From: Candidatus Yanofskybacteria bacterium | GTDB taxonomy: Bacteria; Patescibacteriota; Minisyncoccia; 2-02-FULL-40-12; GWA2-44-9 | Assembly (NCBI GenBank): GCA_020852375.1 | Contig: JADZAY010000009.1 | Span: forward strand, 12,690-76,689 | Length of the DNA stretch: 64,000 nucleotides | Direction of reading: 5' to 3' | Part shown: in pieces, positions 3,025 through 46,145 of the stretch | Layout: each line of letters begins with the position of its first letter | How positions within the stretch are numbered: the stretch's first letter is position 1 | Notes under the pieces: model-generated | What the model was told of the DNA's origin: nothing | What the model saw: the letters and a program-made list of their open reading frames with translations, nothing else | Database searches by the model: none | Translations under genes and position numbers: made by a program

Positions 3025-3192
3025 AATGATCTTCGGAATGCCGTTTGGCATTGTGAAGATCATCCGCAAGAGATGTGGGGGATTCGAAGGGCGGACCGCT
3101 GCGACATCAGCTGATGTCGCCGGGAGCCCGTGCCCAGGCCGAGGCGAGCGACGGCGAGCCGAGAGCCGAGGGAGAATCCTCCCGCCTCCGCA
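3025..3192 (+). repeat. tRNA-3'-linked structured repeat (hairpin + GC-rich core + 19-bp copy of tRNA-Ser 3' end)
   Basis: Hairpin 3029-3062; core GGGGGATTCGAAGGGCGG..CGACATCAGCTGATGTCGCC..GGCCGAGGCGAGCGACGGCGAGCCGAGAG. GAATCCTCCCGCCTCCGCA at 3174-3192 is an exact copy of tRNA 3006-3024. Confidence 0.6.
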
Positions 3193-5245: not shown

Positions 5246-5383
5246 GGGATCCTCCTGCGCGGTGCGCCCTATCACAGAGCGGAGATCCGCGCCGACCCTC
5301 GTGGCACGCATGATCGCATGCCGTCGCAACCTTACAAGTAGCCATTGTAGACGTCAACGCACCCGCCACTCGGGCGGGTGCGT

Positions 5384-5557
5384 GCTCTGTGGACCTACGG
5401 GGAGTCGGCCTCGCCTCTCGGCGCGCCGCCGCGCACCTCGGGCTGGCCACCGCCTCACGGTGCCGCCGACTGGCGGCACATCGCTCCGGCGTTCGTCTCC
5501 CCGTATATATTCGCTGTAGCAATACGGACAACCCTTGAGGGTTGTCCGTATTGCTCT
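5384..5557 (-). repeat. tRNA-3'-linked structured repeat (24-bp copy of tRNA-Ala 3' end + core + hairpin)
   Basis: GCTCTGTGGACCTACGGGGAGTCG at 5384-5407 duplicates 5553-5576. Minus-strand core ACGGGGAGACGAACGCCGGAGCGATGTGCCGCC..GAGGCGGTGGCCAGCCCGAGGTGCGCGGCGGCGCGCCGAGAGGCGAGGCC. Hairpin 5519-5554. Confidence 0.6.
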
Positions 5558-5558
5558 G

Positions 5559-5629
5559 TGGACCTACGGGGAGTCGAACCCCGACTTCATCCATGCCATG
5601 GATGCGTGATACCGCTTCACTATAGGCCC
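5559..5629 (-). tRNA. tRNA-Ala (anticodon GGC)
   Basis: G3:U70 in the acceptor (GGGCCTA/TAGGTCC). Anticodon loop atGGCat. Confidence 0.85.
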
Positions 5630-12295: not shown

Positions 12296-13213
12296 ATGAG
12301 CGGAAGACTGAAATTCCTTCTCGCTGTTTTGGCTGTGGGTGCCGGCCTTCTTTTCTGGTACTTCGCAAGCTACGGCCCAGCACCCTCGAAGCAGGCGGTC
12401 TCTGCGTCGCTCTACCAGAAGACCACCGCGACGCTCCAAGACACCGATAGCGATGGCCTCGGGGATCACGAAGAGACCTATTGGGGAACGGATTTCAAAA
12501 ACCCTGACAGCGACGGCGATGGATTCTCCGACGGGGAAGAGGTGTTGAGCGGGCACAATCCCGCAAAGAAAGGTCCTGACGACTTTTTGAATGAACGCCG
12601 TAATCTGACCGAACGAACCAGCACACTTCTGTTGGGCGGCCTCGTTGCCGGAGACCTGAATCCAGAAAGCCCCCAGTACGAAGCATCAGTCACTGCACTC
12701 GTCGACCAGTTGTTCGATCAATACAGCGCGAACACCGCCGTCGAGCTCGATTCGCTCACCTACAGCGACAACTCCACGGACGCCCTTATTCGCTACGGTC
12801 TCGCCATGAGCCGGATTCTTCCGAAATTGTTCTCCGAAACCGCAGAAGGATTCGTGAAGACGCTCGGAGTCGTGGGAAGCACCCCCATCGATGCACTCTC
12901 GAAGCTTCAGAAAGAGCAACCGGAAACCTACCGCACATTCGCCGCATCCATCGACACCCAGATTGTGCTCCTGGAGACCTACGCGGCAGACCTTAAGAAG
13001 CTCAAGGTTCCACCATCCATGCGCACCGCGCACCAGAATATGCTCCTCTTCGTCCGCGGATACCAACAGCAGTACCGCGCGGTACGCGACATCAGCCGCG
13101 ACCCGCTCCAGGGCATTATCGCACTCCAGGTGCTTGAGTCGCTCACCGCGGACACCTCCATAGAAATCAGCTCTGATTTTTCAAATCGCCTCGCCCGGGC
13201 ATTCCAGCAATGA
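12296..13213 (+). CDS. membrane-anchored protein with thrombospondin type-3-like Ca-binding repeats, hypothetical
   Basis: N-terminal TM helix. DTDSDGLGDHEE and DSDGDGFSDGEE repeats. First gene of the co-directional T4SS-like operon. Confidence 0.55.
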   Translation: MSGRLKFLLAVLAVGAGLLFWYFASYGPAPSKQAVSASLYQKTTATLQDTDSDGLGDHEETYWGTDFKNPDSDGDGFSDGEEVLSGHNPAKKGPDDFLNERRNLTERTSTLLLGGLVAGDLNPESPQYEASVTALVDQLFDQYSANTAVELDSLTYSDNSTDALIRYGLAMSRILPKLFSETAEGFVKTLGVVGSTPIDALSKLQKEQPETYRTFAASIDTQIVLLETYAADLKKLKVPPSMRTAHQNMLLFVRGYQQQYRAVRDISRDPLQGIIALQVLESLTADTSIEISSDFSNRLARAFQQ

Positions 13214-14874: not shown

Positions 14875-14876
14875 CC

Positions 14877-17465: not shown

Positions 17466-17986
17466 TCGAACCAACCGACCCACGAAGCCCGGAGGTGATC
17501 GAATATATCTCCCTGAGTCCCTACGCGGCGGCACTGCAGGGGAAAGACCCTATCGATCGGGAGTTGTTCGGTCTGGTCTTCGACGACCTCCCGGAGCCAG
17601 TGAAAGACACGCTAACCGATCCGACCACGGTGGAAACCATCAAGCAATGGGCGCGCGACGGTCTCTTTCCGGCAACACATGCTCCGGCCATCGCGAAGCT
17701 CATCGGGCTCGTCGCGCTCGACGAGGTTGCCTTCGAGGCCATCCCTCAACTCCTTGAGCGTATCGGGCTTTCCCGGGACCAAGCGGGGCGAACCACTGCC
17801 GCGATCACAAAACTCCTGCAGGCACTCACTGATGCGCGCGCGAACGAAACAGCAGAAGAGGCGGCGCCGCAGGAACTCCGTGAGCTCCCGCCGCTTACCC
17901 AACGCGTGCCTCCGCAAGGACCCCATTCTGGCACCGAGACGCCCGCGCGTAATATAATAGACTTACGCAAGAAGCCCGAAGCATGA
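17462..17986 (+). CDS. hypothetical protein (T4SS-like operon)
   Basis: 174-aa ORF translationally coupled to both neighbours. Confidence 0.45.
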   Translation: MIEPTDPRSPEVIEYISLSPYAAALQGKDPIDRELFGLVFDDLPEPVKDTLTDPTTVETIKQWARDGLFPATHAPAIAKLIGLVALDEVAFEAIPQLLERIGLSRDQAGRTTAAITKLLQALTDARANETAEEAAPQELRELPPLTQRVPPQGPHSGTETPARNIIDLRKKPEA

Positions 17987-18294
17987 AATTTCAAGTTCCT
18001 CAATTCATCGAGACGGAAACAAAGCTCATCGGGCCACTTACGCTCCGACAGTTCCTCTTCGTCGCTGGCGGCGTCAGCATGACCGCTATGGCGTATATCG
18101 CGCTGAATGGCATCTACTTTGCGATCGCCGCGATCCTCATTCTGGGATTCTTCGGAGCGCTCGCATTCGTACGGATCGACGGACAACCGTTCTTCAATTA
18201 TCTCGCCTACATGCTCGCGTACACGCTCGGCGCGAAGCGGTACATCTACCGAACCGGCGGGAACCAGAATCAATTCACACCACCTCATGCCTGA
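17983..18294 (+). CDS. PrgI-like / VirB3-like small two-TM membrane protein
   Basis: 103 aa, two TM helices (LFVAGGVSMTAMAYIALNGIYFAIAAILILGFFGALAFV), immediately upstream of VirB4. This arrangement is typical of Gram-positive and CPR T4SS loci. Confidence 0.5.
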   Translation: MKFQVPQFIETETKLIGPLTLRQFLFVAGGVSMTAMAYIALNGIYFAIAAILILGFFGALAFVRIDGQPFFNYLAYMLAYTLGAKRYIYRTGGNQNQFTPPHA

Positions 18295-18925
18295 ACCATC
18301 GACGACCGAACTGATCCAACTCCAATCCGTCTCGGACGGAGTCATCATCCTGAAGGACGACTCGCTCCGCGCTATCGTCGAGGTTACCGCCATCAACTTC
18401 GAGCTCCGAAGCGGCGAAGAACAGGCCGCCATTTTGCAACAATTCGCCGCATTTCTGAACTCCGTCGATTTCCCGGTCCAGCTCGTCGTCCACTCGCGCA
18501 GATTCGACATCAGCACCTACCTCGCCTCCGTACAGCAAGCCACCCAAGCACTGACTAATGACCTCCTGAAAGTGCAGGCGGAGGAATATATCCGGTTCGT
18601 CTCTGAGCTCTCAGACCTCGCGAACATCATGGCAAAGCGGTTCTACATCGTGCTGCCGCTTTCGGTCGTGCCGGTCGCCGCCAGCGGGGGATTTATCTCG
18701 GGAATCACCGGCCTGTTCAAAAAGAAGCCGAAAGAAACGGCGATCTCCCCAGAGCGCATCGCCCAATACAAGTCTCAGCTTCAGCAACGCGCGGAGATCG
18801 TCATCGGCGGCATCTCCGGCATGGGTTTGCGTGGGCGCATGCTCGAACAAGCGGAGGTCGTCACCCTGTTCAACGCGCTCTACAATCCGGTCATTCCCGC
18901 AACCAAGAAACCAGAAACACCGTAA
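18287..18925 (+). CDS. VirB4/TrbE-family protein, N-terminal domain fragment (split from ATPase domain)
   Basis: 213 aa starting MPEPSTTELIQLQSVSDGVIILKDDSLRAIVEVTAINFELRSGEEQ, resembling the N-terminus of conjugal-transfer ATPases. Ends with TAA 2 nt before the ATG of the ATPase ORF, in a different frame. Confidence 0.5.
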   Translation: MPEPSTTELIQLQSVSDGVIILKDDSLRAIVEVTAINFELRSGEEQAAILQQFAAFLNSVDFPVQLVVHSRRFDISTYLASVQQATQALTNDLLKVQAEEYIRFVSELSDLANIMAKRFYIVLPLSVVPVAASGGFISGITGLFKKKPKETAISPERIAQYKSQLQQRAEIVIGGISGMGLRGRMLEQAEVVTLFNALYNPVIPATKKPETP

Positions 18926-18927
18926 CC

Positions 18928-20670
18928 ATGGACGAATCCCTCTCGATCGCACAATCCATCGCACCGTCAGCGCTCCACATCACCCCGAACTACCTCCAGG
19001 TGGGGGACAAGTATGCGCGTACCATCGTGATCGCTTCGTACCCACGGTATTTGAACGCGAGTTGGCTCTCTCCGATCATCAATTTCGACAAGGTTCTCGA
19101 CATATCGATCTTCGTGAATCCGCAACAGACCTCCACAGTTCTCAAACAGTTGCGCGACAAGCTTGCACACGTCCAGGCCCAGATCATGGAGGAGGAGGCG
19201 GCTGGGAAGGTTCGGAACCCGGTACTCGAGACGGCCGCGCAAGACATCGAAGCGCTCCGCGATGAGCTTCAGCAGGGGACCGAACGCTTCTTCCAGGTTG
19301 GCCTCTATATCACCATCTACGAGAACAGCCCGCAGGAGCTGGACGAAACCGAAAAGACCATCCGCAGCATCCTCGACGGCCAGCTGGTCGTTGCCAAGCA
19401 GGCGACATTCCGTATGCTCGAGGGATTCCTGACCACATCGCCGCTCGCCGACGACCGCATTCAGGCGCTTACCGCACTCAACACGCAGCCGGTAGCATCG
19501 ATGTTCCCGTTCATATCGAGCGATCTTACCAGCGACTCCGGCATCTTGTATGGAGTGAACACGACGAACAATTCGCTCGTGCTCTTCGATCGCTTCTCGC
19601 TCGAGAACGCGAACACCGTGCTGTTCGCAAAGTCCGGTGCCGGAAAAAGCTACACCGTGAAGCTCGAGATCCTGCGTTCACTGATCATGGGGACGCAGAT
19701 CCTCGTCATCGACCCTGAGGACGAATATAAATATCTGAGCGACACGGTCGGCGGCACGAACGTGAAGATCTCGATCAACTCCGATCAGCACATCAATCCA
19801 TTCGACCTCCCGACACCAAAAGACGAGGAATCGTGGAGCGACGTGTTCAACTCACACATCCTTGGCCTCGCTGGCCTCATAAAACTGCTCATGGGAGGCC
19901 AGTTGTCACCGGAAGAGGAATCGATGATCGACCAGGCGCTCATCCAGACATACGCCCTGAAAGACATTACCCCCGATACCGACTTCTCGAATCTACCGCC
20001 GCCAGTGTTGAGCGACCTCCAAAGCATCCTCGAGGGGATGGCGGGGGCGGAACGCATGGCAACGCGCCTCAAGAAGTTCACCGAAGGAACATTCGCAGGA
20101 TTCCTCAACAATCCGACCAATGTTCCACTCGACAACCAGCTCGTCGTCTTCGGCATCAGAGACCTGGAAGACGAGCTTCGCCCGATCGCTATGTACTCGG
20201 TGCTCAACTACATCTGGACACAGGTGCGTCGCGAGCGGAAGAAGCGCATCCTCGTCGTCGATGAGGCCTGGTGGATCATGAAATTCCCGGTTGGAGCTGA
20301 CTTCTTGTTTAACATCGCGAAGCGCGGCCGAAAATATTACGTCGGACTCACCACGATCAGCCAGGACATCCCCGACTTCATGAGCGCGCCGCAAGGAAAG
20401 GCGATCGTGACGAACTCCTCCATTCAGGTGCTCATGAAGCAGTCTCCGGCGGCTATCGATATTATCCAGCAGACTTTCAACCTTACCGATTCGGAGAAAT
20501 ACTACCTCCTTGAAGCGCGCGTCGGGTTCGGGTTGTTCTTCCTCGGCGCAAACCATGTCGGGCTCCGGGTGCTCGCTTCCTACGCAGAAGACCAGATCAT
20601 CACCTCAGATCCGAAACAGCTCATCGAGATCGAAAAAGCAAAGCAAGAGTGGGCGAAGCTAAATACATAG
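18928..20670 (+). CDS. virB4: VirB4/TrbE/CagE-family type IV secretion ATPase (C-terminal and middle domains)
   Basis: Walker A FAKSGAGKSYT, Walker B ILVVDEAWWIM; 580 aa. Confidence 0.85.
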   Translation: MDESLSIAQSIAPSALHITPNYLQVGDKYARTIVIASYPRYLNASWLSPIINFDKVLDISIFVNPQQTSTVLKQLRDKLAHVQAQIMEEEAAGKVRNPVLETAAQDIEALRDELQQGTERFFQVGLYITIYENSPQELDETEKTIRSILDGQLVVAKQATFRMLEGFLTTSPLADDRIQALTALNTQPVASMFPFISSDLTSDSGILYGVNTTNNSLVLFDRFSLENANTVLFAKSGAGKSYTVKLEILRSLIMGTQILVIDPEDEYKYLSDTVGGTNVKISINSDQHINPFDLPTPKDEESWSDVFNSHILGLAGLIKLLMGGQLSPEEESMIDQALIQTYALKDITPDTDFSNLPPPVLSDLQSILEGMAGAERMATRLKKFTEGTFAGFLNNPTNVPLDNQLVVFGIRDLEDELRPIAMYSVLNYIWTQVRRERKKRILVVDEAWWIMKFPVGADFLFNIAKRGRKYYVGLTTISQDIPDFMSAPQGKAIVTNSSIQVLMKQSPAAIDIIQQTFNLTDSEKYYLLEARVGFGLFFLGANHVGLRVLASYAEDQIITSDPKQLIEIEKAKQEWAKLNT

Positions 20671-20671
20671 T

Positions 20672-21697
20672 ATGCCAGGAGAAGTATCGCCCCAAACACC
20701 AACAAACATCGTTCCACCGCCTCCGCAAAATGGTGGAGGTACACCGAAACCAGTCGATGGGGTCGGGGTGGGGGGCGCTATCGAGACGAGCGTAAACATT
20801 GCTGAGCGCCGTAAAGTCAAAAGAGATATCCGGGAAACGCGCCGCGTCTATGACATCGCAGCCGCCTCAGGAGCAACAACCCGAACCCGAGGAGCCAGAA
20901 CGGCGGGCGCCGTGCTTTCGTCGCCAGACCTTCCCCAAGAAGTCCGCGGACTCGCCGAGCGGCTCCGCTCGCTCATCTCTGACAACAAACGGAAAAGCGA
21001 AGATCGGACAAAGGAGTTCGACGCCATCCGCCGATCCATCAAGCGGTCGTTCATCGGTATCACCGGACTCGCACTGTATATCGCAATCTCCGCCGACATC
21101 CTCAGCATCTTTGACGCGGGGTGGATCATCTCGTGGGCAATTCCGATCGTGCTATTCTTCGTGGCTCGCCGCATCGGAGCGATCAATAAAGGAGCTGAGC
21201 GCGCGCAAAAGGCGTACGCAGCAACCCTCCGGGAGCTTCAGCTCATCAACCAACGCCTCGGCACCATCCCTGGGCAGCAACAGCGGCCCGTCCTTGCCGG
21301 TCTTACTGAACAGCTTCAGGGAAAAGTCGGTCAGTACATGACCCGGTTCGTCCTCGAAACCGCTGGCATACAAGGATTCGAGCTCATACCGATCCTGGAC
21401 TGGCTTCCCGCATACACCGGCGGAGTTGTGAAGGTAGCCATCGACCAGTACAACGCGTACCAAAAAGCTCAGCGCATGCTCCCGCCGCTTCAGGAGGCGT
21501 TCGCTCGCCTCGAACAGCTCGAGACGGAAGAAGTTGCGGCGCTCGAAGCGCAGCTCAGTGAAGCGCTTGCGTTGTATCAGCCGGAATTCACCGAGCGGTT
21601 TTATGTATCAGAAGAGGCCCCCCGTATCATGGATATAACCCGACCCTCGACGCGACCGCTCGAAGCGCCGTTGCTCGTACCCGAACCCGCACTATGA
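20672..21697 (+). CDS. membrane protein, hypothetical (T4SS-like operon)
   Basis: Pro-rich N-terminus, central TM pair, coiled-coil C-terminus. Coupled to VirB4. Confidence 0.5.
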   Translation: MPGEVSPQTPTNIVPPPPQNGGGTPKPVDGVGVGGAIETSVNIAERRKVKRDIRETRRVYDIAAASGATTRTRGARTAGAVLSSPDLPQEVRGLAERLRSLISDNKRKSEDRTKEFDAIRRSIKRSFIGITGLALYIAISADILSIFDAGWIISWAIPIVLFFVARRIGAINKGAERAQKAYAATLRELQLINQRLGTIPGQQQRPVLAGLTEQLQGKVGQYMTRFVLETAGIQGFELIPILDWLPAYTGGVVKVAIDQYNAYQKAQRMLPPLQEAFARLEQLETEEVAALEAQLSEALALYQPEFTERFYVSEEAPRIMDITRPSTRPLEAPLLVPEPAL

Positions 21698-22851
21698 AAC
21701 CCTTCCGCGCAAACCTGAATTTTGTCCACGAACGACGCATTGCCTCAGCCGGAGTTGTGATCGGCGCGCTTGTGGCAACCGTCGTCGTCACGGCGTTCGT
21801 GTGGAGCGGAGTAGCTCCGCGTTCTCGACAGACAGCATCGATTGCAAACATCCCGGCAGATACAACACCTCCGCAAACTTTGTCACCGAAGGCTGTTCGA
21901 GTTGCTCCAGAGCCTATCAGCGAACACGCTGTCAGCTCTGTGGCCCACAGTCGAACGCCCGATACCGTCCGCTACTACGAGCAAGAGACTGGGCGTGCGT
22001 TCCAAGTCGACCTCCGCACACTCAAGACGGAAACCCTTTCGGATCGCAAGCTCCCCGGATTCATTCAGTCGTTCTGGGTCCCGAATGCAGATGCGGTAGT
22101 CTCGTTGTTCGATGAAGCGGGGAGCAAAAAGTACCGCTACTATGACTACCAGACACGAACCGCAAAAACGATTGGGTCTGCTGTATCGACGCTCGCCGTC
22201 TCTCCAAGCGGACGCCGCATCGCGTTTATCGATACGACTGGTGAATATCAAGCTCTCTATATCGGCGACACTGATGGAACCGCGGTCCGCAAGGTATTCG
22301 ATACTCGCGCGCAGCACGTCGCTCTCTCGTGGCCCCGCGAAGACGCCTTGGTGCTCACCTCACGCAGGCCGGACCGCGCTGGAACGGATATGTCGGTCAT
22401 CGGACTGAACGGCGAGCTTCGTGTCCTCATGTCGAACCGCGAAAACCTGGAGTACACATGGTCGCCAGATGGGTCGAACCTCCTCTTCTCGTACTTCTTT
22501 CCAGGGAGGGGGATTACACTATGGTATCGCTCTCTCGATAGCGCCCTTGAGATTCCCGTCCCGCTCGCCACGAGCGCTTGGAAGTGCGCCTGGCACAACT
22601 CCAACGAAAAGATCACATGCGGCGTCCCAACCACAACGCTCTCGCGAGATGTGGCGTCCGACAAAACCGCAACGATCGACACCATCGCGACCATCGATCT
22701 TCGCAGCGGGAAGGTCTCGAATCTTTACACTGGCAGTCGGGAGCCCCTCATCGGGGTCATAAATCCCTCAATCTCATCATCGCAACGATACTTCGTCTTC
22801 ACAAACCTCTTCGACCGGCGGCTGATGGAGCTCGAGTTGCCCGCGTATTAG
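21694..22851 (+). CDS. membrane-anchored beta-propeller (TolB-like) protein, hypothetical
   Basis: N-terminal TM helix followed by a WD40/TolB-like repeat pattern. Last gene of the operon. Confidence 0.5.
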   Translation: MKPFRANLNFVHERRIASAGVVIGALVATVVVTAFVWSGVAPRSRQTASIANIPADTTPPQTLSPKAVRVAPEPISEHAVSSVAHSRTPDTVRYYEQETGRAFQVDLRTLKTETLSDRKLPGFIQSFWVPNADAVVSLFDEAGSKKYRYYDYQTRTAKTIGSAVSTLAVSPSGRRIAFIDTTGEYQALYIGDTDGTAVRKVFDTRAQHVALSWPREDALVLTSRRPDRAGTDMSVIGLNGELRVLMSNRENLEYTWSPDGSNLLFSYFFPGRGITLWYRSLDSALEIPVPLATSAWKCAWHNSNEKITCGVPTTTLSRDVASDKTATIDTIATIDLRSGKVSNLYTGSREPLIGVINPSISSSQRYFVFTNLFDRRLMELELPAY

Positions 22852-24936: not shown

Positions 24937-26334
24937 TTGCGGCACATGTCATCCATTCCTCCGGAAGATATTTGGAAAGCAGTGTTGGGAGAAATGGAGC
25001 TTTCTCTTTCTCGCGCGCATTTTACGACGTGGTTCAAGAACACGTCGATCGTCTCTCGTGATTCAAATTCGGTAACGGTGAGTGTTCCGAATGGTTTCGT
25101 AAAGGAATGGCTTGAGAATAAGTTCAACCGCCAAATCCTCGCTTCCGTCCGAAAGCTTTGCAATGAGATTCGAGAGGTCCGCTATATCGTCGGACAACCG
25201 AAACCAGAACCGGCACGCCAGGACATCTCTAAAATCATTATTGAGAAAGAATTCCAGGAACAGTCGGCTGTCGATCAAAGCCAAGAAATCGATAAGGTTA
25301 CCCATCTGAACAAGAAGTACTCCTTCGATTCATTCATCGTCGGCTCATCGAATGAGCTTGCCTTTGCGTGTGCCCAGTCGGTTGCCGCGAATCCTGGGAA
25401 AAACTACAACCCGCTCTTTATTTATGGTGGAGTTGGCCTAGGAAAGACGCATTTGATCCAATCCATCGGAAACAAGCTCCTCACCGATGTCCCTGAACGG
25501 AAGGTGTTGTACACATCGGGTGAGAAACTCACATCGATTATTGTGGAAGCGATCCGAAATCGAACTATCGAAGATATCAAATCGGTGTACTCCCGCCTCG
25601 ATCTCCTTGTTATTGATGACATCCAATTCATAGCCGGAAAAGACAAGACCCAAGAAGTCGTGTTCACGATCTTCAACGAGCTTCACAACCACAACAAACA
25701 GGTTGTGTGCACATCGGATCGGCCCCCGAAAGCGATCCCTGCCATCGAAGAGCGTCTTCAGTCTCGCCTCGAAGGGGGAATGTTGGTTGATATCAATATG
25801 CCCGATTTTGAAACGCGATTGGCGATTTTGAAACAAAAATCAGTTGAGCGGTCCTCACCGCTTACCGATGAAGTCCTTTCATATATAGCAACCCATATCC
25901 AAAAAAATGTTCGCGAACTCGAGGGGGCTCTTAATCGAGTGATCGCCCTGGCGCAGATCTACAACCGTCCGCCAGACCTTAAAGAGGTGAAAAACATCCT
26001 CACCGCATACTTGTCGGTTCCGTACCGAAAAACATCCCCGCAGGCTATTTTGAAAACGGTCGCCGATTTCTACAATATTTCTTCAGCCGACCTTACGAAG
26101 CGGAGTCGAAAGAAAGAGGTTGTAAAGCCGCGGCAAGTCGCCATGTTCCTTTTGCGAGAAGAAATAAAGCTTTCTTTCCCGGAAATCGGACAGAAGCTTG
26201 GTGGCCGCGACCACTCGACAGTCATCCACGCATGCGAAAAGATAAAGAAAGAAGAGGGAATCGACGAGCCACTCAAGAACGAGCTCACTATGATCCGCCA
26301 GCGTATTTACGACTCTTTCGAGCACTCGGGATAG
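24937..26334 (+). CDS. dnaA: chromosomal replication initiator protein DnaA
   Basis: AAA+ motifs [16 protein letters not shown] and [10 protein letters not shown]-terminal DNA-binding domain. Confidence 0.95.
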
Positions 26335-26564
26335 GTTGTTGAAAACCCTGTGGATGACCTTTGTGTGCGCTGTGGGTGAAATGTGTGAATTATTCCCGCC
26401 TCCGGAAACGACCCACAAACACACCCGGGAAATAAGGTTCCCGTCCACATTCGGAATCCTTGGTTTCTCCGCGAAAGGAAAGAGAAATAGCGAGCTCCAT
26501 CCCCATATCAACACCCATAATAAGATATAGTAATATAAGTTAGATTATAGAGCAGAAAAACACT
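26335..26564. promoter_or_regulatory. candidate oriC: DnaA-box-like motifs plus AT-rich unwinding region in the dnaA-dnaN spacer
   Basis: TGTGGATGA 26349-26357, TGTGGGTGA 26371-26379, TGTGTGAAT 26382-26390, GTCCACATT about 26443-26451. The run ATAATAAGATATAGTAATATAAGTTAGATTATAG 26517-26550 is nearly pure AT. Confidence 0.5.
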
Positions 26565-27659
26565 ATGAAGATCACGGTCCATAAAGAACGCTTCGCACGG
26601 GCCCTCGGGTTTGTTGAGCGGATAACCTCTCGAAATTCTTCTCTTCCGATCCTTAATAATGTTCTCTTAAAAACAGAACATGGGAGATTAAAGGTTTCCG
26701 CAACAAATCTCGAGATCGGTGTAACATCGGTTATCGGGGCGAGCGTTGAGCGTGAGGGTCAGATCGCTGTCCCCGGGAAGACGATCGCCGATTTTGTGCG
26801 AAGTGTGCCCGGAGAGACTCTTGATATCAATGTCGATCAGCATACGCTTTCTGCAAGCTCAGGGTCTTACCAGACATCGATTCTTTGTTTTGACCCGGCA
26901 GAGTATCCAATCATCCCAAAGATAGATGGAGGGGAGCAGTTTGTTGTTTCAGTCGAGACTCTCCAGCGGCTTATCGATACCGTGAGCGACTCCATCGCAA
27001 CATCGGATTCACGCCCCGAACTCTCTGGTGCGCTCCTTCGCTTTGATACCGGTATCGTTTCGATGGCGGCGACCGACATCTTTCGTCTTGCAGAACAACG
27101 AGAGGATGGTGAATTTTCGTCCTCTGGTGCCGCTATTGTGCCCCGTGGGACGATATACGAGCTTAGAAGGGTTCTCGGTGGTCTTTCGGGAGATATTACC
27201 GTTCACCTAACAGATAACCAGATCGCATTCGTCCACGAAGACTGCGAGATCGTTTCTCGTCTTATCGATGGGAAGTATCCTGATTATAAAAAAATAATCC
27301 CGGAACGAGCAAACGCTCGCGTGCTTGTCCGGAGAGAAGAAATAGAGAATGCGGTAAAAACAGCAGCTCTCTTTTCCTCAAGCATCTCGGACATCAAGCT
27401 CGAGTGCTCCGGTGCGGAGCTGAAGATCACCGGGAAGAACTCGAATAAAGGGGAAGCGTATGCAGGAGTAGAGGCGAATTTAAAGGGTGATCCGTTCGAT
27501 GTTTCGATGAACTATCATTACCTTCTTGATGGTTTGCGGGCTGTGCCAACGGAAAAAATCATCCTAGAGTTTACCGGCAAAGGAAGCCCATTTGTCCTTC
27601 GGCCGCACAGTGACGATCCTCGGACGGTGTATTTGATCATGCCTCTCCGGAGTTCCTAA
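26565..27659 (+). CDS. dnaN: DNA polymerase III subunit beta (sliding clamp)
   Basis: 364 aa; MKITVHKERFARALGFVERI...NLEIGVTS is typical of DnaN. Confidence 0.95.
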   Translation: MKITVHKERFARALGFVERITSRNSSLPILNNVLLKTEHGRLKVSATNLEIGVTSVIGASVEREGQIAVPGKTIADFVRSVPGETLDINVDQHTLSASSGSYQTSILCFDPAEYPIIPKIDGGEQFVVSVETLQRLIDTVSDSIATSDSRPELSGALLRFDTGIVSMAATDIFRLAEQREDGEFSSSGAAIVPRGTIYELRRVLGGLSGDITVHLTDNQIAFVHEDCEIVSRLIDGKYPDYKKIIPERANARVLVRREEIENAVKTAALFSSSISDIKLECSGAELKITGKNSNKGEAYAGVEANLKGDPFDVSMNYHYLLDGLRAVPTEKIILEFTGKGSPFVLRPHSDDPRTVYLIMPLRSS

Positions 27660-40424: not shown

Positions 40425-40555
40425 GGCCCGCTGTAGGGTTTGAAGCCCGGAGCGATGTGGCGGCAGCGGCCGACACCGCGAGGGCCGGAGCCCGGAGGCG
40501 GACGGCTCAGACCGGGGGCCGTTCGACCGGAGGGTGAATCCTACAGGGCGGACCA
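40425..40555 (+). repeat. tRNA-3'-linked structured repeat (core + 19-bp copy of tRNA-Lys 3' end)
   Basis: CTGTAGGGTTTGAAGCCCGGAGCGATGTGGCGGCAGC..GAGGGCCGGAGCCCGGAGG..GACCGGAGGGT, then GAATCCTACAGGGCGGACC 40536-40554, which equals 40357-40375. Followed by hairpin 40560-40590. Confidence 0.6.
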
Positions 40556-42322: not shown

Positions 42323-42405
42323 CACTTGGCCACTCCTTATTCTGCATGTATGAAGGAAGTGGCTGGCCAAGTGTCCTGAGCGCATAGGCGCGAAGGACTA
42401 CAGTG
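42323..42405 (+). promoter_or_regulatory. conserved hairpin + -10 module (copy 1 of 3) upstream of tRNA-Val(GAC)
   Basis: CACTTGGCCACTCCTTATTCTGCATGTATGAAGGAAGTGGCTGGCCAAGTG hairpin, then TCCTGAGCGCATAGG..., then TACAGT 11 nt before the tRNA. Confidence 0.4.
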
Positions 42406-42478
42406 GTTGCGGTATGCGCGCTTAGCTCAGTTGGTAGAGCATCTCATTGACGTTGAGAGGGTCGTAGGTTCGAGTCCT
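42406..42478 (+). tRNA. tRNA-Val (anticodon GAC)
   Basis: Acceptor GCGCGCT/AGCGCGC. Anticodon loop ttGACgt. Confidence 0.85.
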
Positions 42479-42496: not shown

Positions 42497-42871
42497 TTAG
42501 TTTTTTAGTCTCTTCCCCCGATAGTGAGCCGCTTCGGCGAGGAATCGTTCGTCATCTTTTGTGCTATGCCTGACGGCGTGGCAATTCGCACAGAGAAGAG
42601 TGCATTTCAGGATCTCTGCCCGGATGCTCTCCCAGCTCTTGTTCGCGACATTACCGAGAGTGAAGTCTTTCTTTTGTGGATCAAGATGATGGAATTGAAG
42701 GGCGGCCTGATGGCCCCTCCAGCCACAATCCACGCACTTTCCGCCGAGGATGCGTATGGCAGCCGCCTTGGTTCGATAGCGCCGGATCTTGGTGTTGCAG
42801 GCCCCGCATCTGGCGCGCATTTTCCCCTGGTAATCGTTGTACTCTTTGCCGCATAGTTTACAGATCGTCAT
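42497..42871 (-). CDS. HNH endonuclease (free-standing, zinc-ribbon N-terminus)
   Basis: CKLCGKEY..CGAC N-terminus. HNH core CVDCGWRGHQAALQFHHLDP...LLCANCHAVRH. Paralogous in architecture to the HNH gene at 2384-2755. Confidence 0.75.
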   Translation of the reverse strand: MTICKLCGKEYNDYQGKMRARCGACNTKIRRYRTKAAAIRILGGKCVDCGWRGHQAALQFHHLDPQKKDFTLGNVANKSWESIRAEILKCTLLCANCHAVRHSTKDDERFLAEAAHYRGKRLKN

Positions 42872-42945: not shown

Positions 42946-43223
42946 GCCGCGGTAGCTCAGTGGTAGAGCGCAGCCCTAAATCTTTGGGGCTTTCCGCAGG
43001 AATGCGGATTGAGAAATCGGGTGAATTCGGGGGAACTCCGGAACGGTCTGGACAATCCCGAGCCGAGCTCCGTGGGGTATCCAAAACGGAGAAGGTGTAG
43101 AGACTAGCGGGTGAGCCCAACAATACTCCCGCACAAGCGCCCGACCTCCAGAACGGAGGATGATATAGTCCAATTCAGCTTCGGAAGAGGCTGGCGTCGG
43201 GGGTTCAATTCCCTCCCGCGGCA
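42946..43223 (+). tRNA. intron-containing tRNA, most likely tRNA-Phe (anticodon GAA); exons 42946-42977 and 43184-43223
   Basis: 5' exon GCCGCGGTAGCTCAGTGGTAGAGCGCAGCCCT and 3' exon GAAGAGGCTGGCGTCGGGGGTTCAATTCCCTCCCGCGGCA together give a 72-nt cloverleaf with anticodon loop ctGAAga. Identity rests on the splice-junction assignment, including an unusual G37. Confidence 0.7.
42978..43183 (+). ncRNA. group I self-splicing intron (Azoarcus-type) in tRNA anticodon loop
   Basis: 206 nt. Internal guide GGGGCT (42986-42991) pairs with exon end AGCCCU with a U.G pair at the splice site. P2 hairpin CCGCAGGAATGCGG. Core GAAGGTGTAGAGACTAGCGGGTGAGCCC closely resembles the Azoarcus tRNA-Ile intron P7 region, with ATATAGTCC as the P7 3' strand. 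The intron ends in G. Confidence 0.75.
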
Positions 43224-43224
43224 C

Positions 43225-43267
43225 AAAGTAAACTAAAACCGCCCCTCAGGGCGGTTTTAGTTTACTT
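43225..43267. terminator. perfect 20-bp hairpin after tRNA-Phe
   Basis: AAAGTAAACTAAAACCGCCC-ctca-GGGCGGTTTTAGTTTACTTT. Confidence 0.5.
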
Positions 43268-43411
43268 TCCTGCTCGCGGCCGGGAATTGAAGGGCATCGA
43301 GCCGAGCGAACTGCTTCGCTCGGTGAGAGCCCGGGCTCCGGGGGAGCATCGAAGCGTCCGCCGAAGGCGGCTGCGAAGATGCGGAGGAGGAGAATTCCCT
43401 CCCGCGGCACA
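43268..43411 (+). repeat. tRNA-3'-linked structured repeat, unit 1 of tandem pair (divergent core + 19-bp copy of tRNA-Phe 3' end)
   Basis: AATTCCCTCCCGCGGCACA at 43393-43411 equals tRNA 43207-43225. 5' flank GCGGCCGGGAATTGAAGGGC is roughly complementary to the T-arm. Followed by hairpin 43414-43449. Confidence 0.55.
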
Positions 43412-43452: not shown

Positions 43453-43588
43453 ACGTATCGTGGCGGGAGGGAATTGAACGCCGGAGCGATGCGGTATCAG
43501 CTGATATCGCCGCGAGGCGGTGGCCAGCCCGAGCGTCGCGACGGCGCCGCGAGAGGCGAGGCCAATGACTGACCCCTCCCGCGGCACC
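43453..43588 (+). repeat. tRNA-3'-linked structured repeat, unit 2 of tandem pair (canonical core)
   Basis: CGTGGCGGGAGGGAATTGAACGCCGGAGCGATGCGGTATCAGCTGATATCGCCGCGAGGCGGTGGCCAGCCCGAGCGTCGCGACGGCGCCGCGAGAGGCGAGGCC, then CCCTCCCGCGGCAC (a partial copy of the tRNA 3' end). Followed by hairpin 43595-43623. Confidence 0.6.
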
Positions 43589-44063: not shown

Positions 44064-44765
44064 TTAAACGCCGGAAGATTCTAGCATATCCAAGGTTTTT
44101 TGCAAGTCCTGGGGGAGGTCGGCTTCCAGGGCAAGGGCTTTGCCGTCCGGGCTTGTGAGGCGGAGCTTCCAGGCGTGCAGGAAGAGGCGCTCAAGGCCCG
44201 GCGGGAGAGGCTTCTTTGCCGCGTAGAGCTTGTCGCCGGCGAGGGGGCAACCGATATGCTTTAGATGTACCCGGATCTGGTGGGTGCGGCCCGTTTTTGG
44301 CATGGCGCGCACGAGTGTGTAGTCGGGGTACGAGCGGAGGACCTCATAGTCGGTGACGGCATCCCGGACAACGAGCTCGCGCTTGCCTTTGATCTGGGTG
44401 GTCTGCTTGGTGCCCAGTTTTCCCAGCGGGGCGTCGATGGTTCCCGATGCCTGCGCGGGGCGTCCGTGCACAAGGGCGAGGTATTCTTTTTGGGTCTGCC
44501 GGGTCTGGAAGAGGTTCTTGAGGTACTCGAATGTCGGCTGGTCCTTCGCGATGACCATGATGCCCGACGTCTCCTTATCCAAGCGATGCACGATGCCGGG
44601 GCGGAGCGGGGATTCGCCAACGCCGGCGAGGTACGGTCGTTCGGCGACGAGCATATCCGCCACCGTGATCTGGGGGTCGGTGGGGCTTACTTTGTGCACC
44701 GCAATGCCATACGGTTTGTTGATGGCAAAGAGATGTGCGTCTTCATAGATGACGGGGAGGGTCAT
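44064..44765 (-). CDS. RluA family pseudouridine synthase
   Basis: Catalytic motif HRLDKETSGIMVIAK. Lacks an N-terminal S4 domain. Confidence 0.85.
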   Translation of the reverse strand: MTLPVIYEDAHLFAINKPYGIAVHKVSPTDPQITVADMLVAERPYLAGVGESPLRPGIVHRLDKETSGIMVIAKDQPTFEYLKNLFQTRQTQKEYLALVHGRPAQASGTIDAPLGKLGTKQTTQIKGKRELVVRDAVTDYEVLRSYPDYTLVRAMPKTGRTHQIRVHLKHIGCPLAGDKLYAAKKPLPPGLERLFLHAWKLRLTSPDGKALALEADLPQDLQKTLDMLESSGV

Positions 44766-45190
44766 GCGTTCAATGCTTTCTTGAACATTGAGAGAGCGAG
44801 GTCTGCGCTGATAAGGTTGACGGGGATTTCATTGAGTCCGAACCACTGCCACTTCTCAAACTTCTCGGGTTCCATGAGCTTTGGTTCTTGGTCGGTTGCT
44901 ACCTCGAACACGAATACATGGTCGCGTCCGGTCTCATCAATGTATGCGCCCGGATACTCACCGAGCTTCCGGACAATGCGAGCGTCCGTGACCCCGATTT
45001 CCTCCTCGATTTCTCGGATGACGGTGGACTCGGGAGCTTCACCGGCGTCGCATCTGCCACCGGGAGCGACCCATAGTGAGGTATCGTGGTAGTGGCGAAG
45101 ACCGAGTAGAATCTTCCCATTTCGAATGATGACCGATGATGTGCAGTTGTGGTTCTTTGGGGAATGAGATTCGTAGAATTTCGGCGACAT
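44762..45190 (-). CDS. NUDIX hydrolase
   Basis: Nudix box GGRCDAGEAPESTVIREIEEEIG. Confidence 0.8.
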   Translation of the reverse strand: MSPKFYESHSPKNHNCTSSVIIRNGKILLGLRHYHDTSLWVAPGGRCDAGEAPESTVIREIEEEIGVTDARIVRKLGEYPGAYIDETGRDHVFVFEVATDQEPKLMEPEKFEKWQWFGLNEIPVNLISADLALSMFKKALNA

Positions 45191-45221
45191 GGCGATGAGA
45201 AGGTGGTAAATACGTTTCTTG

Positions 45222-45330
45222 TGGCGGAATTATTGTAACTCTCCGCGCCTGCCTGCCGGTAGGCAGGCCCATGCGCTCGGGGCACTTGGCCAGCCACCCC
45301 CTTCATACATGCAGGATAAGGAATGGCTAA
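45222..45330 (-). promoter_or_regulatory. conserved hairpin + TACAAT module (copy 2 of 3) upstream of the NUDIX gene
   Basis: Minus-strand reading: CACTTAGCCATTCCTTATCCTGCATGTATGAAGGGGGTGGCTGGCCAAGTG hairpin, then CCCCGAGCGCATGGG.., GCCTGCC-hairpin, then GAGAGT-TACAAT-AATTCC. ATG 40 nt downstream. Confidence 0.4.
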
Positions 45331-45332
45331 GT

Positions 45333-45455
45333 GTGGGCGGTAGAGGACTCGGCTTTGTCTCTCGCGTCGCCGTTGCGACGCTCGGATTAGCCACCGCCTC
45401 GCGGCGCCACCTACTGGCGGCGCATCGCTCCGGCGTTCGAGCCTCTACCATTCGC
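45333..45455 (-). repeat. tRNA-3'-linked structured repeat (core + 19-bp copy of tRNA-Val(TAC) 3' end)
   Basis: Minus-strand reading: GGTAGAGGCTCGAACGCCGGAGCGATGCGCCGCCAGTAGGTGGCGCCGCGAGGCGGTGGCTAATCCGAGCGTCGCAACGGCGACGCGAGAGACAAAGCCGAGTCCTCTACCGCCCACAC. The 19-bp copy at 45333-45351 equals 45502-45520. Hairpin 45457-45500 separates it from the tRNA. Confidence 0.6.
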
Positions 45456-45502
45456 TAACTGTATCAAATACAACATGCCAAATGGCATCTTGTATTTGAT
45501 AG

Positions 45503-45576
45503 TGGGCGGTAGAGGACTCGAACCCCTGACCCTCGCTGTGTAAAAGCGATGCTCTACCAACTGAGCTAACCGCCCG
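45503..45576 (-). tRNA. tRNA-Val (anticodon TAC)
   Basis: Acceptor GGGCGGT/ACCGCCC. Anticodon loop ttTACac. Confidence 0.85.
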
Positions 45577-45660
45577 GAATTATTGTAGCCCCGCGAACCC
45601 ATGTTCTCGGGACACTTCGCCAGCCAACTCCTTCATACATACAGAATAAGGAGTGGCGAA
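45577..45660 (-). promoter_or_regulatory. conserved hairpin + TACAAT module (copy 3 of 3) upstream of tRNA-Val(TAC)
   Basis: Minus-strand reading: CACTTCGCCACTCCTTATTCTGTATGTATGAAGGAGTTGGCTGGCGAAGTG hairpin, TCCCGAGAACATGGG.., then GGGGC-TACAAT-AATTCC directly abutting the tRNA 5' end. Confidence 0.45.
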
Positions 45661-45790
45661 GTGTGGGGGGAGCCTGGATTCACCCTCCGGTCAGGCCTGC
45701 GCCGTCGCTTGGCCTGCCTTCGGGCTCCGGCCCTCACGGTCGCGCCTGCTGGCGCGACATCGCTCCGGGCTTCGAATCCTATCACTCCAA
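45661..45790 (-). repeat. tRNA-3'-linked structured repeat (Lys-type core + diverged copy of tRNA-Ile 3' end)
   Basis: Minus-strand reading: GATAGGATTCGAAGCCCGGAGCGATGTCGCGCCAGCAGGCGCGACCGTGAGGGCCGGAGCCCGAAGG..GACCGGAGGGTGAATCCAGGCTCCCCCCACAC. Hairpin 45791-45836 separates it from tRNA-Ile. Confidence 0.55.
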
Positions 45791-45838
45791 CTACTACTTG
45801 AAACCGACCCGCCGCAGGGGCGGCTCGATTTCAAGATG

Positions 45839-45912
45839 TGGGGGAGCTAGGATTCGAACCTAGGACCACCAAGGTATAAGCTTGGCGCTCTAACCAGCTG
45901 AGCTACTCCCCC
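45839..45912 (-). tRNA. tRNA-Ile (anticodon TAT)
   Basis: Reverse complement folds as GGGGGAG-UA-GCUC..CCAAG-CUUAUAC-CUUGG..CUCCCCC-A. The loop CUUAUAC gives anticodon UAU, which is unusual. Confidence 0.7.
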
Positions 45913-46145
45913 TGAATCAATTGTAGTTTGTACGCTTTTCCCTGACGTTTGATCTGCTGCTCTCGCTTGGTTGCCGAACCGCGATCCGGATGTCGCTCAG
46001 TATACAGCAGGGTGAACGGGCCGCGCCCTCGGGTGTACTTTGCCCCCGTACCCGCTCGATGCTGTGCGATGCGCGCGGCGATGTCGGTCGTGATCCCGGT
46101 GTACAGCGTACCATCACCGCACTTCAGGATGTAGACGACGTACAT
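45903..46145 (-). CDS. GIY-YIG nuclease family protein (free-standing, 80 aa)
   Basis: MYVVYILKCGDGTLYTGITTDIAARIAQH...E (GIY-YIG core with Arg and Glu). The last 10 nt overlap the 5' end of tRNA-Ile. Confidence 0.7.
   Translation of the reverse strand: MYVVYILKCGDGTLYTGITTDIAARIAQHRAGTGAKYTRGRGPFTLLYTERHPDRGSATKREQQIKRQGKAYKLQLIQGE

Follow-up and report, generated by a model that had tools for sequence, protein, structure and literature searches.

The tRNA-Ile(TAT) and tRNA-Val(TAC) genes of this stretch of DNA (the window, 64,000 nucleotides in all) are each followed by a small structured unit, and both units are members of a large, previously undescribed family of small non-coding elements found in Patescibacteria; a literature search returned no published description of them. 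A unit is placed just behind the 3' end of a highly expressed gene, mostly a tRNA gene, and consists, in this order, of a hairpin (hairpin A), an arm (F) that is antisense to the last ~12–20 nt of the preceding gene (nt 54–73 of a tRNA), a core that forms a conserved, Y-shaped three-way junction with many tandem G-A motifs, and a second, direct copy (X2) of the last nucleotides of the gene, which pairs with F and thereby closes the junction. We regard the chances as evenly balanced that the units are a non-autonomous, guide-bearing mobile element that targets highly expressed genes at their 3' ends.

The order and position of the blocks on the minus strand, from tRNA-Ile through to the NUDIX gene, agree with a preliminary description of the sequence. 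They are as follows (X1 is the 3' end of the gene itself; L122 is a related locus considered below):

45838..45912, minus strand: tRNA-Ile(TAT) (ARAGORN; Rfam tRNA, 74.7 bits)
45838-45855, minus strand: X1 of tRNA-Ile, its last 18 nt, copied downstream
45797..45835, minus strand: Ile-unit hairpin A (loop CCUGCG); part of the inserted block, missing in L122
45771..45788, minus strand: Ile-unit arm F, antisense to tRNA-Ile over the T-loop, the T-stem and the 3' strand of the acceptor
45682..45770, minus strand: core of the Ile unit, conserved and Y-shaped, Ile/Lys subtype, with a P2-P2b-P3 arm and a P4-P5 arm
45663..45681, minus strand: Ile-unit X2, repeating the 3' end of tRNA-Ile in direct but diverged form, with the CCAGG T-stem allele
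45576..45662, minus strand: spacer module copy 1, with a hairpin (45613-45662), a second small hairpin and TACAAT
45502..45575, minus strand: tRNA-Val(TAC) (ARAGORN; Rfam, 69.5 bits)
45502-45520, minus strand: X1 of tRNA-Val
45462..45501, minus strand: hairpin A of the Val unit, terminator-like; missing in L122
45436..45449, minus strand: Val-unit arm F (GGTAGAGGCTCGAA), antisense to 3 nt of the acceptor as well as to the T-stem and T-loop
45352..45435, minus strand: core of the Val unit, 'canonical' CGCC/GGCG subtype
45333..45351, minus strand: Val-unit X2, repeating the 3' end of tRNA-Val exactly over 19 nt from T-loop C56
45226..45332, minus strand: spacer module copy 2, with a hairpin (45283-45332), a GC-rich hairpin and TACAAT before the NUDIX leader
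44762-45190, minus strand: NUDIX gene (Pfam NUDIX, E 7e-22)

The same three-way junction is predicted for both units (fold z -4.22 for Ile and -4.52 for Val vs shuffles), and both are matched by R1, a covariance model built from other copies: the Ile unit at 45674-45784 with 59 bits (E 7e-14) and the Val unit at 45342-45449 with 89.4 bits (E 4e-22). The 19-bp Val copy that had been reported is exact (45333-45351 = 45502-45520). By our own arithmetic, 64 kb should contain ~4e-4 exact 19-mer repeats whose copies lie no more than 400 nt apart, which places this one far beyond chance, and its offset of -19 is common to most copies elsewhere. The duplicate of the tRNA-Ile 3' end has diverged in the way previously quoted (GAATCCAGGCTCCCCCC versus GAATCCTAGCTCCCCC). 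Arm F of the Ile unit gives a duplex energy of -22.1 kcal/mol with X1 vs -16.5 kcal/mol with X2, and that of the Val unit -25.5 and -22.2 kcal/mol, respectively. The GCGAA immediately 5' of the Val arm may be a remnant of an older arm.

Across the family, units measure ~110–130 nt, or ~150–190 nt including the hairpin, and the hairpin-A loop has the form NCUGCN in 45 of 115 units. In most tRNA cases X2 begins at T-loop C56; exact identity with the gene runs for 15–55 nt and sometimes extends through the trailer and terminator. Short-stem units (class B) terminate in GUGACCACA. Arm F is weak though X2 is exact in L036 and L037, the opposite case also occurs, and -10-like hexamers are often located just 5' of arm F. 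In an alignment that had been fitted to the covariance model, 91.3% of cells were paired, compared with 64.6% when shuffled and 23–51% with slid partners, and compensatory changes were found in 35 of the 36 pairs. Since G-U/U-G pairs outnumber A-C/C-A pairs in the core by 184 to 38, the sense (tRNA) strand is the folding strand. The hairpin next to orthologous cores likewise varies by compensated substitutions.

Both building blocks recur, as the preliminary view of them as modules had implied: the spacer pattern was found 3 times in the window (0.00 expected), and R1 gave 118 matches in 100 loci, almost all of them in Patescibacteria. Because this locus sample was seeded with one core pattern, sequence conservation is overstated. 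A same-strand tRNA end lies within 320 nt upstream of 82 of the 118 units, against 4.4 expected (P ~1e-87), and four units lie behind tmRNA. Further units follow the stop codons of rpsR (S18) and rpsI (S9), where F and X2 match those gene ends, indicating that the closing helix is programmable and independent of tRNA shape. One core serves >20 tRNA species, tmRNA and two ribosomal-protein genes, with arms matched to each target, and units fill the tRNA-Lys(CTT) site of many distant lineages. No family in Rfam 15 matches the unit, the gathering score being reached only by tRNA, tmRNA, SSU rRNA and Intron_gpI; in a scan of 45200-45950 at E<=10, only spurious miRNA and YrlA matches below 20 bits fell over the units, and no Rfam model of a self-cleaving ribozyme matches them. 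No protein family recurs among the 497 unit-adjacent ORFs, no transposase, integrase or reverse transcriptase was found among the 18 window ORFs and the unit neighbours, and no TnpA was seen in the sequences examined (the window and loci, not whole genomes). A 124-aa HNH ORF (42497-42871) scored 18.2 bits vs a Pfam cut-off of 21.4, and its position is unrelated to the units. In the viral contigs scanned for the core, the one match was unconfirmed by R1, and no unit was found there. Core-pattern matches in Streptomyces, Kitasatospora, Planctomycetota and others were set aside as chance hits in coding DNA.

R1 identified 6 copies in the 64-kb window, and 6 of its 16 tRNA genes bear units. In addition to the Ile and Val units, the units of the window are:

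40431..40554, plus strand: sister unit after tRNA-Lys(CTT); X2 = 40536-40554, an exact 19-mer (R1)
43270..43410, plus strand: variant-core unit after tRNA-Phe; exact 3'-end copy at 43392-43410 (fold z -3.13)
43465..43587, plus strand: second (distal) unit after the intron-containing tRNA-Phe; X2 degenerate (R1, 88.9 bits)
5383..5505, minus strand: sister unit after tRNA-Ala(GGC) (R1, 87.3 bits)
3075..3192, plus strand: sister unit after tRNA-Ser(CGA); X2 = 3174-3192, exact (R1, 80.2 bits)

The variant-core Phe unit has the same architecture, with a AACUGCUU loop on one arm, and is not matched by R1 on its own strand. The Ala unit carries an exact copy of 25 nt (5383-5407 = 5552-5576), and the Ser core is divergent, with compensated P2/P2b. 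The predicted folds of the Val and Ala units leave the acceptor part unpaired.

Comparison with relatives provided occupied and empty versions of the same sites. L122, whose FtsH is 87% identical to that of the window, shows the order tRNA-Ile, spacer, tRNA-Val, spacer, with the spacer orthologs directly behind the tRNAs and neither hairpins nor units. Since both hairpin and unit are absent from L122 while the spacer remains, hairpin and unit constitute one insertion/deletion. L123, a conspecific of L122 (FtsH 610/613; flanks 98% identical in nucleotides), carries units, and the divergence between the two begins exactly at the tRNA-Ile 3' end; this difference may reflect gain, loss or recombinational replacement, all of which are compatible with it. 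The Ile, Val(TAC) and Lys sites are all filled in the window, and only the Lys site is filled in L122 and L125. In L126 the Ile and Val(TAC) sites are both empty, and in L127 and L128 the Ile site is empty and the Val(TAC) site filled (the Lys site was not seen in these three). The core of the L127 tRNA-Val(TAC) unit is of the Ile/Lys type and that of the window of the other subtype, so the two units are independent insertions; on this comparison of cores, two subfamilies evidently colonised one tRNA independently. The L127 Val unit and the window Ile unit have homologous hairpins (~80% alike), but their arms differ, and the P5 arm of the L127 unit is Lys-type. Sequence comparison thus indicates mosaicism between units, and the L127 arm looks like an old remnant joined to 12 new nt.

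Not all copies are intact. Tandem arrays exist in which the most decayed copy is the distal one, and truncated or degenerate copies occur, as in L123. The second Phe unit of the window is missing in L122. Orthologous units are, by comparison, well conserved between the window and L122: the Lys unit is ~91% identical (X2, 19/19) and the Phe variant ~94%, vs 82–83% genome-wide. A purely selfish non-autonomous insertion should decay, raising the possibility of a benefit to the host.

The allele at the Ile site bears on how the copies arose. The CCAGG of the window Ile X2 is the T-stem allele of the L123 tRNA-Ile, and the downstream copy in L123 carries the window's tRNA-Ile allele, CCTAG. This reciprocal pattern looks like recombination between alleles or units, not simple decay, and the previous interpretation of the diverged Ile copy as an older event is accordingly doubtful. 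In three cases (window Ile, L123 Ile and L110 Ser) another bona fide allele of the same tRNA end forms the downstream copy. Three single models were considered: site-specific insertion strictly at the T-loop, strict duplication of the target site, and insertion behind the terminator. None explains every case; conflicts arise from the reciprocal alleles of the T-stem, from the window's second Phe unit when set against L122, and from 54–55-nt duplications that include terminators.

The hairpin+TACAAT spacer has a history of its own. Copies 1 and 2 form a repeat family (D7) with 85% identity, and a third copy, devoid of a unit, lies between two other tRNA genes:

42324..42415, plus strand: spacer module copy 3, between tRNA-Leu(GAG) and tRNA-Val(GAC), without a unit

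At this position L122 has a 16-nt spacer in place of the module, and because the module is found there in the window and not in L122, the spacer, which is lineage-specific, is an insertion/deletion in its own right. Metagenome contigs scanned for the spacer module gave only 2 matches, both AT-rich and attributable to chance. TACAAT, which had been put forward as a promoter, is located 6 nt upstream of tRNA-Val and a second time in front of the NUDIX leader, and a -10-like hexamer likewise stands a comparably short way from other tRNA genes in the window. A sigma-70 scan of 45100-46000 gave zero promoter sites (-35 plus -10), and the assignment of a promoter draws on this -10-like hexamer only.

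How might such units arise? The architecture, the sense-strand structure, the association with targets, the presence/absence differences, the independent arrival of two subfamilies at one tRNA and the mosaicism of units are demonstrated by the comparisons above. If the units are a guide-bearing mobile element, arm F would act as a base-pairing guide that chooses the insertion site, and insertion would leave the target 3' end on either side of the element, so that the tRNA stays intact. The core would serve as a handle for an enzyme encoded elsewhere, the sense strand would be the active form, as RNA or single-stranded DNA, and units would recombine with each other and with incoming alleles. 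We infer the guide role of F, and likewise the enzyme, the nature of the intermediate and which 3'-end copy is borne by the element; F could be either a pre-existing guide or partly copied from the target at insertion. A bolder form of this proposal, which we think unlikely, is that the units represent a new class of guide-directed element, separate from group II introns, IS605, IS110 and OMEGA systems: a programmable module free of protein genes, in which the 12–20-nt F guides an enzyme encoded elsewhere to a site just upstream of the terminators of highly expressed genes and the unit copies itself there. The core-proximal part of the arm would then possibly be re-templated from every new target.

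The principal alternative is that the unit serves the host, as a structured RNA gene or as an RNA module of the 3' flank, and acts on the 3' end of the preceding transcript, for example in fail-safe termination, processing of read-through RNA, 3'-end protection or protein binding via the tandem G-A motifs, and that its spread is secondary. We hold this to be a tentative possibility. It would account for the strong sense-strand covariation and G-U asymmetry, the conservation of orthologous cores above the genome average with compensated changes in the adjacent hairpin, and the filled tRNA-Lys(CTT) site in distant lineages; in the Lys unit of the window, the substitutions within arm F remain compatible with wobble pairing, and the -10-like hexamers frequently found just 5' of F also fit. 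A host function does not sit well with units at only 6 of 16 window tRNA genes, with close relatives in which the same tRNA is filled or empty and filled by different subfamilies, with the toleration of truncated and degenerate copies, or with tandem arrays. Exact duplications of up to 55 nt, moreover, include non-functional trailers and therefore point to recent DNA events rather than selection.

Two further explanations were considered. The units could be scars or miniature, CIME-like derivatives of integrative elements or prophages at tRNA 3' ends, the duplicated 3' end being attL/attR and the core a former attP arm region. The duplication does run from the T-loop to or past the tRNA end, as in T-loop-type att sites (a class reportedly described by Williams in 2002), elements accrete in tandem at one tRNA, and different bona fide alleles downstream, as in the three cases above, are expected if the element's copy displaces the resident one. 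This origin is nonetheless very improbable: no integrase or recurrent gene lies beside units and no unit was found in the viral contigs scanned, protein-binding att arms would not give RNA-type covariation with G-U over A-C at 5:1, and integrases do not retarget one core to such a range of tRNA, tmRNA and ribosomal-protein genes. A crossover in the T-loop would also not leave the 5' strand of the T-stem matching the proximal copy, as it does in the reciprocal-allele cases. Even less credible is that 'tRNA - hairpin - unit - promoter' duplicates or moves as one block with TACAAT as working promoters, although the blocks do appear twice in one order, in tandem, the two spacers have 85% identity and TACAAT lies at the distance typical of -10-like hexamers before window tRNA genes. 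The spacer is present without the unit in L122 and at 42324-42415, the unit without the spacer at the Ser, Ala, Lys and Phe sites of the window and in all other genomes, the Ile and Val units differ in core subtype, the tRNAs are fixed, syntenic single-copy genes and no sigma-70 promoter is predicted. The idea that blocks move or duplicate as units therefore holds insofar as blocks recur and are gained or lost as blocks, but as one composite module it is largely refuted by L122, which splits the pieces.

The units share features with several known systems. Like integrative elements and CIMEs, they use the 3' part of tRNA/tmRNA from the T-loop on, keep the gene intact through a duplicated 3' end (the exact 15–55-nt direct repeats from C56 are of att type) and accrete in tandem; they differ in having no integrase or cargo, a length of 110–190 nt, an RNA-type folded core and a target-antisense arm, in residing also behind protein genes, and in directing one core family to dozens of targets. 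With IS200/IS605, PATEs and REP/RAYT they have in common a small, structured, strand-specific form with hairpins at the ends. In the IS200/IS605 group, pairing of an internal guide with the flanking target is established and excision is precise and scarless, but the guides are 4–5 nt compared with 12–20 nt in the units and the target is not duplicated; the core is also different, and no TnpA or RAYT gene was seen. Group IIC introns likewise home behind the terminator hairpins of unrelated genes via RNA structure and short flank pairing. The units are 5–20 times smaller, duplicate the target and have no reverse-transcriptase ORF, and they differ from group II introns in showing no Rfam match and no domain V/VI, the 107-position model having two arms only. 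A compact scaffold with a programmable site-matching stretch is also found in the bridge (seek) RNAs of IS110/IS1111 and the OMEGA RNAs of TnpB/IscB, whereas the units have no DEDD recombinase, TnpB or IscB nearby, consist of one closing helix and two arms, and pair the programmable stretch in cis with the target copy. MITE-like repeats (Correia, ERIC, RPE, BOX) are similarly multicopy, non-coding, ~100–200 bp, foldable, intergenic and patchy among strains. Their terminal inverted repeats are constant and their target duplication short and fixed, in contrast to units, in which the termini F/X2 vary with the target, the duplication is 15–55 nt and the inner core is constant. The T-shaped hairpins of parvoviruses (AAV ITR) match in size and topology, with a long stem closed by two short arms; this likeness is one of shape only, as the unit stem is host-gene specific and no Rep/HUH gene or linear replicon was seen.

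If F is indeed a guide, the units would be a very compact retargetable insertion system that, without carrying a gene, has spread to most tRNA species, to tmRNA and to operons of ribosomal proteins throughout a bacterial superphylum, and would be relevant to mobile-element biology and genome engineering. If they instead serve the host, they would be a widespread new structured RNA at the 3' ends of the most abundant transcripts of minimal genomes. Either way, they account for many 'orphan' fragments of tRNA 3' ends and unusual intergenic structures in assemblies of Patescibacteria, a covariance model is available for annotating them, and the filled and empty sites (window vs L122, L123 and L125–L128) make the question directly testable.

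L079, where 4.1 kb separate tRNA-Ser from a downstream unit whose arms are Ser-type, was considered as a possible cargo-carrying or autonomous version and discarded; the interval contains guaA and ordinary genes and no recombinase. A kissing contact of the CUGC in the hairpin-A loop with the GCAG in the P3 loop was rejected because their co-occurrence (10 vs ~9.4 expected) is near expectation and thus shows no covariation. Mimicry of tRNA fails as a general principle, given that the core replaces the T-loop and that the rpsR and rpsI units close with protein-gene sequence, and it is also contradicted by the short-stem units. As to termination, a scan of 45100-46000 for intrinsic terminators was passed by hairpin A of the Val unit as the sole site, hairpin A of the Ile unit failing; in other genomes, a separate terminator is often found upstream of hairpin A.

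Reading the minus strand from 45912 to 45222, we found the order tRNA, hairpin, unit (the small structured repeat behind gene ends) and spacer module (a hairpin+TACAAT stretch distinct from the unit) twice in tandem, as the preliminary description had proposed:

45838–45912, minus strand, tRNA-Ile(TAT)
45797–45835, minus strand, 39-nt hairpin behind tRNA-Ile
45663–45788, minus strand, Ile unit
45576–45662, minus strand, spacer module between the Ile unit and tRNA-Val
45502–45575, minus strand, tRNA-Val(TAC)
45462–45501, minus strand, 40-nt hairpin behind tRNA-Val
45333–45449, minus strand, Val unit
45226–45332, minus strand, second spacer module, behind the Val unit

A NUDIX gene (Pfam) follows. 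The window belongs to a Candidatus Yanofskybacteria MAG, its FtsH being 100% identical to protein P0001. Both units close with X2, a direct copy of the gene 3' end, which is an exact 19-mer of the tRNA-Val 3' end in the Val unit and a diverged tRNA-Ile 3'-end copy, also quoted in that description, in the Ile unit.

The further proposal that tRNA, hairpin, unit and promoter form one composite module is not supported, since the spacer is a separate, lineage-specific piece that occurs without units in the relative L122 (FtsH 87% identical to that of the window, nucleotide identity about 82%). The orthologous order there is GIY-YIG, tRNA-Ile, spacer, tRNA-Val, spacer, next gene, with neither hairpin nor unit at the Ile/Val locus; the L122 spacer begins immediately past ...CAC and the window spacer likewise immediately past X2. 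Besides the two copies listed, the window holds a third at 42324–42415, and L122 has two (8154–8253 and 8328–8418). Between tRNA-Leu and tRNA-Val(GAC) of L122 the spacer is absent, indicating that it is itself an indel, and it was not found in the metagenome contigs scanned for it. L125, L126 and L123 have only the initial ∼18 nt of it (ACTTCGCCACTC...) behind the tRNA, with the next gene directly after. The part of the spacer beyond these ∼18 nt carries an arm complementary to the preceding flank, with which it forms a hairpin; this part thus has the appearance of an insertion paired back to that flank. Such a flank-complementary arm is a theme common to arm F, the 5' arm of the unit, which is antisense to the gene end. 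The TACAAT modules had also been read as promoters; a full sigma-70 promoter was not predicted, and TACAAT is plausibly a –10 element only, its placement matching that seen at other tRNA genes in the window.

Presence and absence of units differ even between conspecific genomes. L123 and L122 (FtsH 610/613, flanks 98.1–98.3% identical in nucleotides) begin to differ exactly at the tRNA-Ile 3' end, from which point L123 carries a degenerate Ile unit, another gene and a Val unit truncated at its 5' end. More distant relatives vary from one to the next: both units are absent from L125 and L126, and the tRNA-Val(TAC) unit of L127 and L128 has a core of the Ile/Lys subtype whereas the window Val unit is of the other subtype, and one tRNA has therefore been colonised independently. 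Moreover, in hairpin and spacer the L127 Val unit and the window Ile unit are ∼80% alike, while the L127 unit has arms that fit tRNA-Val and a P5 arm of Lys type, which indicates one element lineage at different tRNAs with re-fitted arms, the units being mosaics. The arm in L127 resembles the remnant of an older one, after which come 12 new nt that fit the new target. The Lys unit and a variant Phe unit, common to the window and L122, are 91–94% identical with X2 unchanged, and the hairpin beside them has diverged to ∼70% with compensated changes.

Trained on 15 copies, a covariance model detected exactly six window units, each just 3' of a tRNA and on the same strand (Ser-CGA, Ala-GGC, Lys-CTT, the intron-containing tRNA-Phe, Val-TAC and Ile-TAT). 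A seventh unit with a variant core (43270–43410, plus strand), not detected by this model, lies between tRNA-Phe and the other Phe unit, and its L122 counterpart is at 10130–10270 (minus strand). The variant-core units make up a second element family with a different core and the same layout of arm, two-armed core and exact tRNA-end copy; one arm has the AACUGCUU loop elsewhere typical of hairpin A, the hairpin ahead of F.

All seven window units share a common fold (z –3.1 to –4.8 versus shuffles). In the predicted fold, F pairs with X2 in the closing helix P1; F is antisense to tRNA positions 54–73 (T-loop, T-stem 3' strand and acceptor 3' strand) and X2 starts at T-loop C56. The first arm comprises P2, a GGA/GA internal loop, P2b, an AU bulge and P3, often with an AGNN cap, and the second P4–P5 with two further tandem G-A motifs and often a GACG loop. 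The hairpin stands ahead of F or interrupts it, giving two halves, and has the loop NCUGCN in 45 of 115 cases among the matches listed. X2 of long-stem units is an exact copy of 15–55 nt that can extend through trailer and terminator; short-stem units end in GUGACCACA, and their F pairs with only the final ∼5 nt of the tRNA. Across the covariance-model alignment, which is fitted to that model and derives from a sample seeded by a sequence pattern, 91.3% of cells are paired (64.6% in shuffles, 23–51% with slid partners), compensatory changes occur in 35 of 36 pairs, and G-U/U-G outnumber A-C/C-A in the core by 184:38. This excess argues that the tRNA-sense strand folds, as RNA or single-stranded DNA.

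Scanning one genome per species for the core pattern gave at least 118 stretches. Nearly all matches listed are from Patescibacteria (Saccharibacteria, Kaiser-, Yanofsky-, Adler-, Uhr- and Falkowbacteria, Paceibacterota), with a few MAGs labelled Elusimicrobia or Gammaproteobacteria; matches in high-GC actinomycetes and similar genomes were rejected by the covariance model as chance. Among the matches listed, the model gave 118 hits in 100 sources; for 82 of the 118 units a tRNA on the same strand ends no more than 320 nt upstream (4.4 expected, P ∼1e-87), and four more lie behind tmRNA genes (L024, L087, L100, L113). Others follow the stop codon of rpsR (S18; L033, L040, L101, L114) or rpsI (S9; L013, L026, L049), the last genes of ribosomal-protein operons, where F and X2 match the final ∼24 coding nt. 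What these targets have in common, therefore, is sequence immediately ahead of the terminator in a highly expressed transcription unit. With P1 programmable, tRNA mimicry drops out as the general principle. In L002, L034 and L069 the duplicated target is at least 33 nt (CAAAAACGATACCGGAGAGGTGCAGCAACAAAA). Rfam held no matching family, and a full-text literature search found no description of the units. In L079 (1020–1128 and 5260–5350, both minus strand), a unit whose arms are of tRNA-Ser type and whose exact copy is 22 nt long is 4.1 kb from the only tRNA-Ser of that locus, with guaA and three other genes between; a promoter-like TATAAT and a structured stretch lie immediately upstream of the unit.

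Several lines of evidence favour a non-autonomous mobile element: presence or absence in close relatives, independent colonisation of one tRNA, arms re-fitted on a common backbone, tandem arrays in which the most decayed copy is the distal one, truncated copies, and long exact duplications of non-functional trailers. Consistent with this, no protein or gene recurred among the unit neighbours and no unit was found in the viral contigs searched. Arm F would then pick the insertion target by base pairing, and the core would be a handle for an enzyme encoded elsewhere. Scars of classical integrase att sites would account for the 3'-end duplication but leave the RNA-type covariation, the many targets and the missing integrase unexplained. 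The in situ conservation of orthologous cores and of X2, the main counter-evidence to mobility, makes a serious rival of an RNA that would serve the host by acting at abundant transcripts' 3' ends; the mobile-element and host-RNA readings are compatible, not exclusive.

The tRNA-Ile T-stem is CTAGG/CCTAG in the window and L122 and CCTGG/CCAGG in L123, and the Ile-unit X2 carries the reciprocal allele (CCAGG in the window, CCTAG in L123). F matches the tRNA's own end, not X2, in both the window and L123, and comparing L110 with L029 gave a third 'foreign but bona fide' X2. Recombination within the conserved core may have given the proximal block (tRNA end, hairpin, F, 5' core part) and the distal block (3' core part, X2) different histories, which is plausible because units are mosaics. 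Alternatively, the element may carry its own tRNA-end copy, displacing the resident one. T-loop crossover, target-site duplication and insertion after the terminator were considered, and none fits all cases as a single model.

The tRNA-Phe(GAA) at 42947–43225 (plus strand) contains a group I intron at about 42978–43183, between positions 33 and 34 (Rfam Intron_gpI, 72 bits; the interrupted tRNA was missed by ARAGORN), and its L122 ortholog has none (CU|GAA|GA); this insertion class has been described in Patescibacteria (PMC13011429). A 124-aa ORF (42497–42871, minus strand) between tRNA-Val(GAC) and this tRNA-Phe has a weak HNH match (18.2 bits, under the Pfam cut-off); since the two tRNAs are 26 nt apart in L122, the ORF is an insertion and possibly encodes a free-standing homing endonuclease associated with the intron. 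Upstream of tRNA-Lys, L122 (12540–12616, minus strand) has a duplicated 15-nt 5' fragment of tRNA-Lys (CCGCCCTTAGCTCAG), which a 46-nt insert with two hairpins separates from TGGTAGAG. The arrangement resembles a D-loop copy interrupted by a small inserted element; the corresponding place in the window has nothing similar. Co-oriented large ORFs at 13210–22851 (plus strand), including a TraG/VirB4-like ATPase (18928–20667) and two big ORFs with no Pfam match, possibly form a cluster for type IV secretion or a pilus-like structure. A replication origin probably lies within the window, where dnaA and dnaN (24937–27656) are in a lower-GC stretch and GC skew changes sign at about 24–28 kb. Directly behind tRNA-Arg(CCT) is a CCA-adding enzyme gene (5840–7270, plus strand; PolyA_pol head and HD domain), which fits with most tRNA genes here not encoding CCA.
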